Source: an uncultured Candidatus Saccharibacteria bacterium (GTDB taxonomy: Bacteria > Patescibacteriota > Doudnabacteria > UBA920). Taken from it: a stretch of DNA of 64,000 nt. The notes under the pieces were generated by a model that worked only from the letters and a program-made list of their open reading frames with translations, ran no database searches and was not told where the DNA came from. Positions within the stretch are counted from its first letter, which is position 1, and each line of letters begins with the position of its first letter. The stretch is taken from positions 142,392-206,391 of the forward strand of contig CAYTCJ010000001.1 of assembly GCA_964436545.1 (NCBI GenBank), given 5' to 3'. Position numbers and translations under genes: made by a program. Below are positions 7,129 through 62,683 of this stretch, one piece after another.

Positions 7129-7314
7129 ATGAGCGAAATTCAACAAAAAAAATTAAATATTATATCTGAGCTTAGAACACTGTGTGCTCATTGTGCGACC
7201 AGTGGCAATAGGGAACATAATTGTCCCATTAAACAAATTGCTTTAAAAGTGCAGTATTTACAAGGTGTCCCTTTAGTGGTAAATAGTGAATTTAAAGGTA
7301 TGCTTTGGGCCTAA
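7129..7314 (+). CDS. Hypothetical small Cys/His protein (CAHC...HNCP)
   Basis: 61-aa ORF immediately after lexA. Confidence 0.3.
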   Translation: MSEIQQKKLNIISELRTLCAHCATSGNREHNCPIKQIALKVQYLQGVPLVVNSEFKGMLWA

Positions 7315-7382
7315 AAACAGATTTTAGATTTGTGATTGAGGATTTAAGAGTCATTTAATTTATAATTTAAAATTTATTTTGC

Positions 7383-7408
7383 TTATACATAAAACACTCG
7401 CTATTTGG
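7383..7408. terminator. Hairpin ACACTCGC-TATTT-GGCGAGTGT between convergent genes
   Basis: 9-bp stem flanked by T-rich sequence. Confidence 0.45.
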
Positions 7409-7652
7409 CGAGTGTTTGTTTAATTGCTAATTGGATTTTTTCTAATTCAGCTCTTTTATTCCATAATTCTTGTTGTAAGGCCAAATTATGCTCAAATAGT
7501 GCTGTTTGATGTTCTGTGGTGAGAATTTTTATTTTATGATCTACGCAAAAGAGCGCCCAGTGGAGTTGCTCTTTGGACATTTTGTCAATCGCACCCAGTT
7601 CCGGAATTGTAATTCCCGGTTTTTCAAAAGTTGATTCGAGAGTTTTAGGCAT
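7401..7652 (-). CDS. Hypothetical protein (83 aa)
   Basis: ORF downstream of the nucleotidyltransferase in the same operon. Confidence 0.45.
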   Translation of the reverse strand: MPKTLESTFEKPGITIPELGAIDKMSKEQLHWALFCVDHKIKILTTEHQTALFEHNLALQQELWNKRAELEKIQLAIKQTLAK

Positions 7653-14401: not shown

Positions 14402-15103
14402 TTACGTTTGTTTTTTTATAACTACTTCGGCAAATAAGGTTTCTTGCTCGGCGCTGAATAACCGCTGTTTAATTAATTCCAGTAAGGCTAAAAAAGTTAC
14501 AATAATTTCGTCTTTATTCTTGGCTTGGCTGATTAAATCGCTTAACTTGGTTTCAATTTGAGAGGAAAGTTGACCTTGCAAGTGGTCAATTTTTTCTTGA
14601 ATGGAAATGGCTTCTTTAATTTTAGCTTTGGGCAGATTATCCAGCTCTTTAAGTGCGGATAAGATTTTTAGAATGCTTTTGTGTAAAGTTTCGGCCGAAA
14701 CGGAAGGATCGGGAAAAAAGTTAATTTTTTCTTCAAAGGTTAGAATCCTGCCCCAGCTTTGTCTGCGTTTGTTGTCTTGATGTTTTAAAAATTTGGCAAC
14801 TTCTTTAAATTGTTTATAGAGCAATAATTTACCTTCCAAATCAACTCCCGGATCTTCTTCTTCGGTAGTAATTTCTAAAGTGGGGAGAATGGCTTTGGAT
14901 TTAATTACCAAAAGTTTGGCAGCAATAGCTAAGTAATCGGCTAAGGTGGTTGGGTCAATGTCTTTAAGTTGTTTAATGTATTGCAAAAATTGCTCGGTAA
15001 CGTCTGCCAGAGCAATGGTGGTAATGTCCAATTGTCTTTGTTCAATTAAACTTAGCAGTAAATCCAACGGGCCTTCAAAGTGTTTGGTTTTGGTGTGAAG
15101 CAT
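14402..15103 (-). CDS. scpA: Segregation and condensation protein A
   Basis: FEGPLDLLLSLIEQRQLDITTIALADVTEQFLQY. Confidence 0.85.
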   Translation of the reverse strand: MLHTKTKHFEGPLDLLLSLIEQRQLDITTIALADVTEQFLQYIKQLKDIDPTTLADYLAIAAKLLVIKSKAILPTLEITTEEEDPGVDLEGKLLLYKQFKEVAKFLKHQDNKRRQSWGRILTFEEKINFFPDPSVSAETLHKSILKILSALKELDNLPKAKIKEAISIQEKIDHLQGQLSSQIETKLSDLISQAKNKDEIIVTFLALLELIKQRLFSAEQETLFAEVVIKKQT

Positions 15104-15110
15104 GCTTTTG

Positions 15111-15518
15111 TCTTGTCATCCCGTCCGCCAGCTGGCGGATTGATGCGGGATCCAGTTTATTTGATCAAGTTATTATATAAGTCTTGCCATTCAGGATTTT
15201 GTTTTTCAATTAAATCCAATTTCCATTTTCTTTTCCACTTTTTAAGCTGTTTTTCTCTTTCAATCGCAGATATTACTTCATTAGTTTGTTCATAATATAC
15301 TAAGGTGTGACATTTGTATCTCTTTGTAAAACCATCTGCTAAATTGTTTTTGTGTTGCCATGTTCTTTTTATTAAATCATTTGTGATCCCAATGTACAAA
15401 GTGCCGTTTCTTTTGCTTGCCATAATATATACATAGTAGTTTTTTTGATTTTTATACTTCATTGGGTGTTTTGTGTCTGGATCCCGCATCTCGGATGCAC
15501 TCGTGCGGGATGACAAGA
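15111..15518 (-). mobile_element. Inverted-repeat-bounded element carrying a small GIY-YIG nuclease ORF
   Basis: Ends 15111-15155 and 15477-15518 share TCTTGTCATCCCG...GATGCGGGATCCAG in inverted orientation; each end is also an internal hairpin. Confidence 0.65.
15157..15462 (-). CDS. GIY-YIG (UPF0213/COG2827-like) nuclease, ~101 aa
   Basis: YYVYIMASKRNGTLYIGITNDLIKRTWQHKNN...YYEQ; the ORF as listed extends to 15567 through the right repeat. Confidence 0.75.
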   Translation of the reverse strand: MKYKNQKNYYVYIMASKRNGTLYIGITNDLIKRTWQHKNNLADGFTKRYKCHTLVYYEQTNEVISAIEREKQLKKWKRKWKLDLIEKQNPEWQDLYNNLIK

Positions 15519-15541
15519 AGGACAAGGAAGGGAGCTGGTAG

Positions 15542-16048
15542 TTATCGTTTTGTTTTTGAGAAAACACCCTTTATAGGTAAAACCAACTTCTCAAAATCTT
15601 TCATTGATAACTCAAAGCTGTCAGTATAAGAGCCGGCAGATGAAATAAGTTTTTTGCTCTTGGACATTCCTTTATCTAACAAGGTTTTAACATTATATTG
15701 ACTCCCAAACGGGTGTAAAAGGCCAATTTTAGTTTTTAGTTTTGCTTTAATTTCCTTTTCTGTGGCGAGGCTGACCTTTTTTGCCTTTAGAGCGGTTTTA
15801 ATTCCTTTTAAATCTAAATATTTACCTGCTGGCAGAACAATTAAAACAAAGTCTTTATCTGCACGCACTAAAACCACCTTAGCAATGTCGCTAAGTTTTC
15901 GTTTAGTGGTTTGGGCTAAATCGTGCGCCGTATACACGACTTTGTGTTTAAGTAAATTATACTTAACTTTGGTTTTATCTAAGAATTTGGTTAAATCGTT
16001 AGACAGTTTGGTGATTTTTGGATTTTTTTTCTTCATATTTTTTTTCAA
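15542..16048 (-). CDS. YbaK/ProX-like aminoacyl-tRNA deacylase domain protein
   Basis: Length and pattern: VKYNLLKH...TAHDLAQ, GLLHPFG. Confidence 0.6.
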   Translation of the reverse strand: MKKNMKKKNPKITKLSNDLTKFLDKTKVKYNLLKHKVVYTAHDLAQTTKRKLSDIAKVVLVRADKDFVLIVLPAGKYLDLKGIKTALKAKKVSLATEKEIKAKLKTKIGLLHPFGSQYNVKTLLDKGMSKSKKLISSAGSYTDSFELSMKDFEKLVLPIKGVFSKTKR

Positions 16049-61011: not shown

Positions 61012-61776
61012 ATGTACAATTTTCCCAAATGGTTAGTAAATTTAGGGGTTGGTCTGTTAATTGTCTTCTTAGCGCTTTTGGTTTTAGATAAAGGTATTGG
61101 CTTGGGCAATAAGCTCACCGGCAAAAAACCCGATAATACTTTATCGGTTTCTGCTGAGGGTAAGGTGAAAGCCACACCCGATTTAGCCACCATTAATTTG
61201 GGTGTCATTACCCAAGGCGCAGAAGCTTCAAAAGTTCAAGACGATAACAGCAAAAAAATTAACAAGATTTTGGAATTTGTTAAAAAGCAGGGGATTACCA
61301 AAGACGATATTTCCACTTCTCAGTTTAACATTTACCCACAGTATAATTATACTAATGGTAAAAATGAGATTATTGGTTATCAGTTGGACCAAACCATTAC
61401 AGTAAAAGTAAAAGGGGTGGATAAATCCACGGAAATTTTAGGTAAAATTTTAAGCGGTGCGGTTTCGGAAGGTGCTAACCAAATTTATGGAGTTGCGTTG
61501 GGTTTTGATGATCCGGATAATTTAAGACAACAAGCCAGAGAATTAGCCATTGAAAAAGCCAAGGAAAAGGCCAAAGAATTGGCTAAAGTAGCGGGGATTA
61601 AATTAGGTAAAGTGATTAGCGTTTCCGAAGCGGGTAGTGGCAATTATCCTATGCCTTATTATGGAGCCGGTTATGGTGGCGGAGGTATGGCAATGGAAAA
61701 AGCAGTGTCTCCCAATATTGAACCGGGTTCGCAAGATGTAGTGGAAAATATGTCCGTAACGTTTGAAGTTAAGTAA
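61012..61776 (+). CDS. SIMPL/DUF541-domain protein (YggE-like)
   Basis: N-terminal TM; SVSAEGKVKATPDLATINLGV... Confidence 0.7.
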   Translation: MYNFPKWLVNLGVGLLIVFLALLVLDKGIGLGNKLTGKKPDNTLSVSAEGKVKATPDLATINLGVITQGAEASKVQDDNSKKINKILEFVKKQGITKDDISTSQFNIYPQYNYTNGKNEIIGYQLDQTITVKVKGVDKSTEILGKILSGAVSEGANQIYGVALGFDDPDNLRQQARELAIEKAKEKAKELAKVAGIKLGKVISVSEAGSGNYPMPYYGAGYGGGGMAMEKAVSPNIEPGSQDVVENMSVTFEVK

Positions 61777-61793
61777 ACTAGTTTTACATTTTT

Positions 61794-61817
61794 AAACCCC
61801 GCTAAACAGCGGGGTTT
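61794..61817. terminator. Hairpin AAACCCCGC-TAAACA-GCGGGGTTT shared by the convergent SIMPL gene and RNase P RNA
   Basis: 9-bp stem. Confidence 0.6.
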
Positions 61818-61823
61818 AAAAAT

Positions 61824-62562
61824 GTTTAAAGCAAACTCATAAGCCGAATTCTGTTCACCCCGTTAGAAGTCCGGTGTCTAAAGACATCGGCAGACGCCTT
61901 TTGGCGTCTTACTTCTAACGGGGTTAACAATCATCTCTCTGGTCCCGATGTTACCACCGGGATCTTGCGACCTACCAAATTTGGTCTTGCACTCAAGTAA
62001 GAATTTAGCCGTTTCACCCGAGCGTTAGCGAGAATGTCCTACGAAGCCTTAGCATAAGTAGGCTACTCGTTTATTACTCGGCTCGCCCTGCCCTTTGCTT
62101 GCAAAGAGCGGGGCGTCCCGACTCTTTCGTATCGGGACGTCTCTGTTCGCATCTCGCACCTTACGGTGGACGGGGATTACCCGCTACTATTTTTGATAAC
62201 TCTTAAGCGGTCATCAAATAAGTGTTCGGACTTTCCTCCCCCCACTTTCTATCCTTTATTACAATTCAAAAGCTTGCAAGCTATTTTGAATACGTTTTTT
62301 TAGTTGCCCATAACTGCCTTTGAATTGTTTGAGATTTTTTTCTCTGGCTCTCGCATCTTTCTCTGATGCAAAAGCTTCGTAGTAAATCAATCCAACAGGG
62401 AGCCTATGTTTGGTATATCCTGATTGCAAAGACATATGTTCCTTAATTCTTCGCTTTAGGTCACTTGTGTAACCTATATAGATTTGACCACCTTTGGATA
62501 TTTTCAAAGCATAGACATAAAACATAGAAAGTGGGGGGCGATTGTTCGGTTTGCTTTAAACC
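61824..62562 (-). ncRNA. rnpB: RNase P RNA (bacterial type) interrupted in its P3 helix by a hairpin-bounded GIY-YIG ORF
   Basis: On the minus strand: P1 GUUUAAAGCAAAC/GUUUGCUUUAAAC; P4 halves GAGGAAAGUCCGAAC and ACAGAAUUCGGCUUAUG; GGGUGAAACGGC present. Confidence 0.8.
62259..62525 (-). CDS. GIY-YIG (UPF0213/COG2827-like) nuclease, 88 aa, inside rnpB
   Basis: MFYVYALKISKGGQIYIGYTSDLKRRIKEH...YYEAF; flanked by 15-bp inverted repeats at 62238-62252 and 62524-62538. Confidence 0.75.
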   Translation of the reverse strand: MFYVYALKISKGGQIYIGYTSDLKRRIKEHMSLQSGYTKHRLPVGLIYYEAFASEKDARAREKNLKQFKGSYGQLKKRIQNSLQAFEL

Positions 62563-62683
62563 GATTAATAATATCATATTTTCAAAGCTTTGTCAAATTT
62601 TATTTCTTTTGCACAAAAAATTTTCTTTGGAATGTTAGCATAATTATTGTATAATATTAAAGAAATTAAGTAATATTTTTGGA

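Follow-up and report, generated by a model that had tools for sequence, protein, structure and literature searches.

A GIY-YIG nuclease gene in the P3 loop of a class-A RNase P RNA gene from Patescibacteria

The DNA considered here, called the window throughout, is a stretch of 64,000 nucleotides (nt) from an uncultured Candidatus Saccharibacteria bacterium (assembly GCA_964436545.1, contig CAYTCJ010000001.1), and its minus strand contains, from 62562 to 61824, what the combined sequence evidence identifies as a genuine class-A bacterial ribonuclease P (RNase P) RNA gene, rnpB. The tip of the P3 helix of this functional-looking gene is expanded by an intact open reading frame (ORF) for an 88-amino acid (aa) nuclease of the GIY-YIG superfamily. 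The features of the locus are collected in Table 1.

Table 1. Features of the rnpB locus, numbered from the first letter of the window.
Feature	Coordinates	Strand	Remarks
RNase P RNA gene, class A, ORF-bearing P3 loop included	61824..62562	-	739 nt; RF00010 match, P1 covariation, homologous loci, minimum free energy (MFE) fold
Sigma-70-type promoter-like site, TTGACA + 17-nt spacer + TATTAT, TG extension	62568..62596	-	Putative; 11 of 12 positions match the consensus
P1 5' strand GUUUAAAGCAAAC	62549..62561	-	Partner 61824-61836
P1 3' strand GUUUGCUUUAAAC	61824..61836	-	13 base pairs (bp) with the P1 5' strand in the window
P2 5' strand AACAAUC	62540..62546	-	Complementary to GAUUGUU, 61926-61932
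P2 3' strand GAUUGUU	61926..61932	-	Complementarity and Rfam alignment
P3 5' strand CCCCCCACUUUCUAU	62524..62538	-	Final two bases are the A and U of the ORF AUG
P3 3' strand AUAGAAAGUGGGGGG	62238..62252	-	Perfect 15 bp with the 5' strand; partly paired extension to 62259
ORF, 88-aa GIY-YIG (UPF0213-type) nuclease, P3 apical loop	62259..62525	-	267 nt; P3 loop of 271 nt
P4 5' strand, conserved region I, GAGGAAAGUCCGAAC	62224..62238	-	High posterior probability against RF00010; invariant in related loci
GGGUGAAACGG motif	62009-62019	-	Sequence reading
P19-position insertion, helix CCCCGUUAGAAGU/ACUUCUAACGGGG and two small hairpins	61858..61923	-	Rfam alignment (insertion of 55 nt), inverted repeat, MFE fold
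P4 3' strand, conserved region V, ACAGAAUUCGGCUUAUG	61838..61854	-	Sequence and Rfam alignment; invariant in related loci
Perfect 18-bp hairpin ACAUUUUUAAACCCCGCU / AGCGGGGUUUAAAAAUGU directly after P1	61786..61825	.	Inverted repeat; weak terminator-like small RNA matches

The initial annotation of this DNA had placed the AUG of the ORF at the closure of the P3 stem and its stop codon 6 nt ahead of the P3 3' strand, and direct reading of the sequence confirms both. The 15-bp stem directly abuts GAGGAAAG, so that the P4 5' strand is bordered by the P3 hairpin on its 5' side, and a repeat search extends the inverted repeat to arms of 22 nt with 91% complementarity (62238-62259 and 62517-62538). 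Upstream, the promoter-like site ends 6 nt before P1, and TTGACA is also found ahead of P1 in three relatives (L001, L007 and L012; related loci are denoted by L numbers). Counterparts of P2, judged by eye and without a formal count, are seen in relatives as AGAUGAUC/GAUCAUCU in L007 and GAUAGCC/GGCUAUC in L012. The insertion labelled P19, after RNase P nomenclature, measures 66 nt and forms a three-way junction that separates the 3' strands of P2 and P4; in L012 and L030 the hairpin at this position repeats the sequence of the locus's own P3 stem and carries no ORF. Other hairpins are present at the P19 position in relatives.

At the Rfam gathering threshold, a scan of the whole window reports tRNA alone and no match to RNase P RNA. 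A permissive Rfam scan of the uninterrupted genomic sequence at 61750-62650 does match RF00010 (RNaseP_bact_a), with 58.6 bits and E 3.4e-17, which is short of the 100-bit gathering score that would mark a class-A RNA. In this alignment the model makes a false P1 and P3 out of the 3' end of the ORF, as the real 5' strands are found 270 nt farther upstream. The ORF-bearing relatives L007, L010 and L012 score 141, 139 and 112 bits, all above the gathering score, and the ORF-less relative L049 also exceeds it at 112.6 bits, with its CCCCCCACCAC...GUGGUGGGGGG hairpin aligned to P3 of RF00010; in the case of L082, whose P3 likewise has no ORF, Rfam places the same type of stem at the P3 of the model. 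The earlier proposal that the 15-bp inverted repeat of the window is P3 is upheld by this hairpin of L049. Both conserved P4 strands (GAGGAAAGUCC and ACAGAAnnCGGCUUA) are present with high posterior probability and are invariant in 23 related loci.

Covariation was assessed in 23 ORF-bearing loci, using gapless alignments of constructs that joined the 24 nt preceding P3, a P3 cut back to its proximal 13 bp and closed with a GAAA loop, and the P4 strands, with the P4 3' strand including the next 19 nt. The P1+P3+P4 structure is paired in 92.5% of cells compared with 74% in shuffles, and its covariation score of 0.481, against 0.149 for shuffled data, was equalled by 0 of 500 shuffles and fell to 0.13 or less when partners were slid by 1-3 columns. 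All 15 of the 15 P1 pairs have changed on both sides; as the positions of P1 were set by distance to conserved motifs and not picked for pairing, this independently supports the inclusion in the RNA of the 38 nt that precede the ORF. In a further control, the helix formed by a locus's own 5' and 3' ends has a median of 13 bp, compared with a mean of 6 bp for mismatched partners. The P3 stem is 100% paired in the 23 loci, with four covarying pairs within the proximal 13 bp, percentages that carry less weight and are not independent because the P3 5' strand was located through its pairing, and its distal part is fully compensated between lineages (for example, CCCCCCACUUUCUA, CCCCCCACCACUUUUAUGCAU, CCCCCCACUAAUUUUGUCCU and CCCCCCACCUUUUACAAUUUAU). 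In the MFE fold of the entire 739-nt RNA (z = -11.9), the ORF is enclosed by both P1 and P3, and P8, P9, P18 and the P19-position junction are recovered. The assignment of minus-strand 61824-62562 to RNase P RNA in the initial annotation is thus borne out by the RF00010 match, by the P1 covariation and by homologues at 112-141 bits; its P1 and P4 strands are present as well, though two were displaced by one nucleotide from their positions in Table 1, the P1 5' strand having been given as 62550-62562 and the P4 5' strand as 62223-62237.

The product of the ORF matches PF01541 (GIY-YIG) over residues 1-71 with E 1.5e-14 and 54.5 bits, against a cut-off of 22.6, and no other Pfam domain is found in the 88-aa protein except the related T5orf172. 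Its matches in the Protein Data Bank (PDB) are 1ZG2 (E 1.6e-7) and 1YWL (E 3e-4), with no others, both of which are UPF0213 proteins that align with it at the motifs YVY, YxGYT, RRxxxH and YT+xR. As a single domain in the size range of ~85-105 aa with UPF0213 proteins as its nearest structures, it agrees with the GIY-YIG/UPF0213-type nuclease in the P3 loop that had been proposed initially. The ORF has more than 1000 homologues, and where these are named, they are Patescibacteria GIY-YIG proteins. Residues Y3/Y5, Y16-I-G18, R26, H30 and E62 are invariant in one alignment. In a set of 27 ORFs that spans P3, P15-17, tRNA-linked and free contexts, conservation is at least 90% in the catalytic-type columns, which, as in the GIY-YIG superfamily at large, would be those of the two Tyr, the Arg, the His and the Glu that binds the metal. 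The ratio of nonsynonymous to synonymous substitution rates (dN/dS) is 0.16 between the window and L001 and 0.09-0.11 for three more distant pairs with a dS of ~1, synonymous sites being near saturation in these comparisons, and values of ~0.09-0.16 indicate that the P3 ORF protein is under purifying selection.

Relatives were collected by two routes. In the first, contigs encoding homologues of the protein were scanned with Rfam, and the ORF was found at the 5' end of the RF00010 match in the syntenic close relatives L001-L005 (95% and 83% protein identity) and likewise in L007, L010 and L012, which are more distant and have other gene neighbours. All of these share the layout P1-P2-CGCCCCCCACUUUCU-AUG...stop-(U)AGAAAGUGGGGGG-AGGAAAGUCCGAAC, and the P1 and P2 strands upstream of the ORF vary by lineage yet fit their own 3' partners. 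In the second route, one genome per species was scanned for GTGGGGGGAGGAAAGTCCGRAC, which represents the P3 3' strand and P4, and yielded 78 loci. A homologous ORF lies between the P3 strands in ~29 of these 78 species-representative loci (tblastn E <1e-15, 44-95% identity), an apparent frequency that depends on the collecting motif. In the ~29 loci the P3 loops are 241-290 nt and the stems 14-24 bp long, and at many loci the start and stop codons fall within the stem strands. The ORF-bearing taxa include Falkowbacteria, Buchananbacteria, Liptonbacteria, Doudnabacteria, division Kazan and Paceibacterota, which amount to at least five candidate phyla or clades that are separate in NCBI taxonomy, and the same architecture recurs in independent assemblies from JGI, ENA, Logan and NCBI, with contigs nearly identical to the window locus in the JGI samples 3300045333 and 3300045372 and the runs SRR23702517 and SRR23702518; no ORF was found in the motif matches outside Patescibacteria (e.g., Arenibacter and Acidobacteria). 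On this evidence, the phenomenon is much broader than a single locus.

Some individual loci of this set have further peculiarities. In L056, from candidate division Kazan, no stop codon precedes the stem, and the P3 ORF continues across the 3' strand of P3 and the 5' strand of P4 to a length of 102 aa, which makes the ribozyme sequence GAGGAAAGUCC coding as well. The rnpB genes of L030 (1278 nt) and L057 (1109 nt) contain several large extra hairpin modules, some of them twice per gene, such as GATGCTTCGCATCGGAAGTCTAAAG in L057. One metagenome-assembled genome, JBAZQS01, has two rnpB genes, one with a P3 ORF and one without (L026 and L059), which we read as most likely reflecting bin heterogeneity because the two are too different for one organism.

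The ORF is damaged or deleted in ~7 of the ~32 rnpB-resident copies, in each case within an intact ribozyme gene. Frameshift-type breaks are seen in L021, L025 and L081, and nonsense codons in L087 (a TGA in an Arg column) and L038 (a TAA in a Tyr column); the GIY-YIG ORF of L030 is broken by a palindromic repeat (GTCATTCCGAGGAGCGAAGCGACGAGGAATC...) that lies within it; and L094 (~140-235) retains an internal-deletion remnant of the ORF as a 64-nt P3 loop, with ATGTTTTATGG at its start and ...CATGAAACATAG at its end. Genetic code 25 or 4 is ruled out as a cause of the broken ORFs by the TGA at Arg in L087, the TAA at Tyr in L038 and the frameshifts in L021 and L025. Taken together with the signs of selection, these copies mark the P3 ORF as a real, selected gene, yet a dispensable one. 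There are also empty hairpins: L049, L066 and L082 have the same P3 stem with a 4-nt loop and no ORF, and their stem sequence is shared with the occupied P3 of L032, L077 and L057. Such empty and filled sites point to a possible structure- or hairpin-directed DNA target of the nuclease.

The age and inheritance of the P3 copy were approached by comparing identities of the protein and the rnpB core, which in close pairs are 0.95/0.92, 0.82/0.78, 0.80/0.77 and 0.79/0.67. The comparison detected no near-identical ORF in divergent rnpB genes, and it has low power because both identities saturate at ~50-60%. Among the species representatives there is no close pair of an ORF-bearing and an ORF-less rnpB, and no recent gain or loss was seen. 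Of 24 P3 ORFs, 19 have a further P3 ORF as their closest relative. As the identities run in step, no close pair of differing state exists and P3 copies are most often each other's closest relatives, the P3 copy looks old and mainly vertical in this sample, with low power for old transfers. The signs expected of a homing endonuclease are divided: ORF-less hairpins on the same stem, copies in decay and one deletion remnant are present, but neither a close pair with and without the ORF nor a sign of recent transfer was found.

The P3 copies belong to a wider family, which we sampled in 80 metagenomic loci containing relatives at 50-63% identity and 82 ORF copies, only three of which reside in P3. 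An inverted repeat of at least 10 bp, C-rich at the 5' end and G-rich at the 3' end, brackets 68 of the 82 copies, so that the repeat is a property of the gene family and not only of P3; the outer ends of the family repeats are alike (C5-6(A/T)C), and the repeat often takes in the start and stop codons. At least 18 copies lie directly 5' of a tRNA gene on the same strand. A sister lineage is found 5' of tRNA-Ala, tRNA-Val and tRNA-Trp (L096, L101, L105, L108, L112, L115, L116, L118, L121, L123, L124, L135, L136, L016 and others), and in these tRNA-5' copies tRNA nt 1-5 (GUGAGGGGC) form the end of the 3' repeat arm and the tRNA start recurs, over 9-10 nt, as a direct repeat upstream of the element, which by analogy would represent target restoration of the kind seen in elements that integrate into tRNA genes. 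Two such units occur in tandem in L016. A sub-lineage with arms ACCCCCACACCAAU... starts at the tRNA 3' end (the second copy of L115, L149, L154 and L165), and in L119 (~1501-1803) a relative of the ORF is followed by GTCGTAACAAGGTA...GGATCACCTCCTTTCT, which is the 16S rRNA 3' end, suggesting that this copy lies inside or at the end of the 16S gene, like the rRNA insertions described in the candidate phyla radiation (CPR) (PMC11270868). The rnpB gene itself offers a second site: in L042 (~7300-7620, reverse strand), L061 and L082 (6420-6712) P3 has no ORF and the ORF is in the P15-17 arm, within a P3-like hairpin of 23-27 bp (CCCCC(C)ACCAC...), the stem of which is nearly identical in L082 to that of its empty P3.

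A large Patescibacteria family of small GIY-YIG genes bracketed by inverted repeats thus prefers stable-RNA genes, and the family of the P3 ORF bears hallmarks of a selfish element. Where carriage by phages was considered, viral contigs (IMG/VR) gave only 4 distant matches, with 31-39% identity over most of the protein. An ORF-less hairpin, CCCCCACCTTTTAGGAAAAAGATGGGGGG, is located in L009 (~2930-2960) just upstream of a free-standing, hairpin-bracketed ORF of nearly the same hairpin sequence.

The window has further features of related kinds. A repeat search found no further copies of the P3 repeat in the window and turned up instead a second, different GIY-YIG gene of another subfamily (15157-15462, minus strand, 101 aa), the product of which has 37% identity to that of the P3 ORF over 61 residues and which lies (flanks ~15100-15560) inside nested inverted repeats, GATGCGGGATCCAG/CTGGATCCCGCATC within CTTGTCATCCCG/CGGGATGACAAG. 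The perfect 18-bp hairpin directly after P1 is positioned between the convergent rnpB and SIMPL genes and is likely a two-way terminator, a function suggested by its sequence and position; it has no entry in the terminator scan.

In considering expression, we note that the ORF starts at nt 38 of the RNA, which leaves no room for a promoter of its own, so that it must presumably be transcribed within the rnpB transcript; a promoter scan found no promoter-like site nearer the ATG than the one before P1. A Shine-Dalgarno-like motif stands upstream of only 4 of the 45 long ORFs in the window, the leaders being A/T-rich, and the organism seems to initiate translation without Shine-Dalgarno sites. 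The lack of such a site was accordingly dropped as an argument against translation of the ORF, as only 4 of the 45 window genes use the motif, and the scarcity of these sites implies that initiation should depend on an unpaired start region. P3 of bacterial RNase P RNA is a peripheral helix of variable length, and thus a loop of any size at its tip should spare the catalytic core.

Overall, we consider it probable that the P3 ORF is an old, mostly vertical insertion of selfish-element descent, comparable to the intervening sequences (IVSs) of rRNA and transcribed from the rnpB promoter. The insert would derive from a Patescibacteria family of promoter-less mini GIY-YIG genes whose C-rich/G-rich repeat swallows the start and stop codons, and which may sit on stable-RNA genes at places where insertion is harmless, namely rnpB P3, the rnpB P15-17 arm, tRNA leaders and trailers, and 16S rRNA. 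The P3 copy would be an old resident of this family, inherited mostly vertically, kept under purifying selection in most lineages, and mutated or internally deleted in others. The promoter that stops 6 nt short of P1 would drive an rnpB transcript in which the ORF occupies nt 38-304, and ribosomes might load on the AUG of the ORF only on nascent RNA, before the P3 3' strand appears ~270 nt later. Once closed, P3 would bury the AUG in a stem of 15-22 bp and tie the 5' strands of P1, P2 and P3 to the catalytic core, with the ORF behaving as an ordinary apical loop of a peripheral helix. The insert may then be either kept or excised at the long perfect duplex, as in rRNA IVSs, and excision would leave a two-piece ribozyme held by P1, P2 and P3. 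For the nuclease itself, the most likely role would be in the persistence or spread of the element at hairpin-type DNA targets and not in tRNA processing. The two possibilities raised in the initial annotation, a selfish cassette that colonised P3 or a lineage with an ORF-bearing P3, would then each be partly true, since the gene belongs to a hairpin-bracketed family of selfish type while the P3 copy appears old, widespread and selected. A more specific version, which we hold only tentatively and regard as somewhat doubtful, is that the mature RNA keeps the insert and is both a ribozyme subunit and the sole mRNA of the nuclease, with P3 closure serving as a co-transcriptional timer, and that this arrangement is maintained across several candidate phyla and explains part of the "missing" rnpB. 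In that event P3 closure would permit one short burst of translation per ribozyme made, and one RNA would serve as ribozyme and as mRNA, its structural switch built in.

Several considerations weigh against the probable reading of the P3 ORF as an old IVS-like insertion of selfish descent. The window RNA falls under the Rfam gathering score at 58.6 bits; the P3 pairing percentages are not independent evidence, in distinction to those of P1; and the collecting motif fixes eight proximal P3 pairs, so that both the sample and the frequency at which the ORF appears are biased by it. An 85-aa catalytic domain without a DNA-binding domain is untypical for a homing endonuclease, and long-lasting, strong purifying selection could equally mean that the host uses the protein. 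Our sequence comparisons revealed neither a recent gain of the P3 copy nor presence/absence polymorphism between close relatives, and they gave no clear case of its horizontal transfer; co-transcription, the timing of translation and the fate of the insert are all inferred from sequence.

Two alternatives concern the reality of the nested arrangement. Were the ORF merely an upstream neighbour, with an RNase P RNA that begins after it and has no canonical P1-P3, the complementarity of the upstream 38 nt would be fortuitous. All 367 positions of RF00010 can indeed be forced onto the sequence downstream of the ORF start (61824-62284), and likewise in L007, L010 and L012, but the forced P1 and P3 are full of non-canonical pairs, whereas in every lineage the segment upstream of the ORF is paired with the 3' end, with 15 of 15 compensatory P1 pairs, P2 and P3 are complementary across the ORF too, the promoter-like site is upstream of the P1 5' strand, and ORF-less relatives join the same 5' segment directly to P3. 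Covariation as seen in the aligned loci contradicts this arrangement, which we consider very improbable. An assembly artefact or chimera that falsely joined a GIY-YIG gene into rnpB has in its favour the sole point that the source organism is uncultured, and it is hardly credible given that dozens of independent contigs from various studies and assemblers have the same architecture, that the junctions are precise, with stem strands abutting the start and stop codons, and that the stems covary between lineages.

The other two alternatives accept the nested gene and differ as to what it does. It might be a domesticated host gene, a useful GIY-YIG protein in DNA repair or in processing linked to tRNA or RNase P, parked in P3 for constitutive and tightly limited expression from the rnpB promoter, with its selfish ancestry irrelevant today. 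This would fit the low dN/dS (0.09-0.16) across divergences at which synonymous sites are saturated, the co-divergence of the ORF with rnpB with no recent transfer found, its presence in several candidate phyla, and the ties of the family to tRNA genes and rnpB, which are the substrate and the enzyme in RNase P processing. We nevertheless think it unlikely, since ~7 of the ~32 rnpB-resident copies are broken or deleted inside an intact ribozyme gene, many relatives with the same P3 stem have no ORF, and the family has traits of a parasite (multiple copies in a locus or genome, duplication in tandem, and direct repeats that restore the target at tRNA genes); moreover, a homing-type element that still spreads in populations would show purifying selection too. 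Alternatively, the ORF might be an actively homing cassette, whose nuclease cuts ORF-less P3 alleles or a cruciform and which is then copied by recombinational repair through the P3, P2 and P4 flanks, so that its distribution would be largely horizontal. Empty and occupied hairpins with the same stem sequence, the occurrence of one ORF-plus-stem module at P3, at the P15-17 arm and at intergenic sites, and an insertion site bordered by the most conserved sequence of an essential gene all agree with homing, as do sub-lineages that are faithful to their sites in the manner of homing endonucleases and the side-by-side presence of intact, decayed and deleted copies, which recalls the classical cycle of gain, decay and loss. 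Against it stand the failure to find closely related rnpB genes that differ by the ORF or near-identical ORFs in divergent hosts, the small size of the 88-aa protein with its single Pfam domain and no recognisable DNA-binding domain, and, for viral contigs as vectors, the absence there of any relative above 39% identity, and we judge homing to be distinctly unlikely as the present mode of spread.

The arrangement has practical consequences. As a default Rfam scan misses the gene, pipelines will report a GIY-YIG protein and no rnpB at such loci. In a survey of circularised CPR genomes, 10 of 35 had no RNase P RNA detectable at default thresholds (Lui et al. 2021, PMC8172020), and many CPR RNase P RNAs required manual refolding, with extended or missing helices being described, not an ORF; an ORF in P3 would be a testable explanation for at least some of the genomes reported to lack the RNA. 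The locus is also a natural experiment, suggesting that P3 tolerates a loop of ~270 nt and that the P15-17 arm takes the same insertion in other lineages, and it exposes a large undescribed family of hairpin-bracketed, apparently promoter-less mini-nuclease genes for which stable-RNA genes may act as safe harbours, with no intron or intein involved. No description of a protein gene inside rnpB was found in the searchable full-text literature, which omits most subscription journals; the claim of novelty in the initial annotation is consistent with this, and as far as that literature shows, the gene would be the first protein-coding gene nested in an RNase P RNA.

The predicted RNA can be compared with several known systems. 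With class-A RNase P RNA (RF00010) it shares the P1-P4 core, both conserved P4 strands, 5' and 3' ends paired in P1, the P8 and P9 hairpins, the GGGUGAAA motif, P15 and P18. It differs in having a P3 with a 271-nt loop that holds a protein gene, in its extra three-way insertion at the P19 position, in having no P16/17, and in scoring under the gathering threshold, which is why a default scan misses it.

The IVSs of bacterial 23S rRNA are extra segments at the tip of a peripheral helix that end in a long duplex and have no intron fold; some carry a small ORF, and their excision by RNase III is documented. The rnpB insert resembles them in its position at a helix tip of an essential stable RNA, in its long end duplex, in having no intron fold, and in that the host RNA would tolerate the insert because the helix holds its parts together. 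In contrast to the 23S IVSs, the host is RNase P RNA and not rRNA, and the ORF encodes a GIY-YIG nuclease and not a member of the 23S-IVS protein family.

With GIY-YIG endonucleases of group I introns of the I-TevI type, the likeness is in a nuclease gene that lies in a loop of a structured RNA within an essential, conserved gene, and RNA structure at the start site likewise restrains the translation of I-TevI. At this locus a group I intron that carries a homing endonuclease is excluded, as there is no Rfam intron match up to E = 1 in 61750-62650, the ORF being flanked by a simple inverted repeat alone, and as the protein scores 19.7 bits against TIGR01453, for which the cut-off is 56. Unlike the I-TevI type, the P3 ORF protein is a catalytic domain alone, and tolerance would come from the placement of the insert and not from splicing. 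The stand-alone UPF0213/YhbQ-type proteins (1ZG2 and 1YWL) are similar in their single domain and in size (the solved chains have 96 and 107 residues), and they differ in being encoded, as far as is known, by free-standing ordinary genes, whereas the clade of the P3 ORF is enclosed by repeats and lies inside stable-RNA genes.

An ORF-bearing, non-intron insertion in a stable RNA is of a known kind, while the RNase P ribozyme is a site not previously described in the searchable literature. The nearest precedent is that of Tsurumaki et al. (2024, PMC11270868), who reported non-intron insertions with GIY-YIG ORFs in CPR rRNA genes and also mention IVSs; the term "RNase P" has 0 occurrences in their paper. 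Those insertions and the present one share the group of organisms, the protein superfamily, the lack of a group I or II intron, and sites mostly at the tips or bases of stem-loops of stable RNAs, and one of our sampled relatives (L119) lies just upstream of the 16S 3' end. What sets the rnpB insertion apart from the rRNA insertions is that its site is fixed at the P3 tip and conserved over several candidate phyla.

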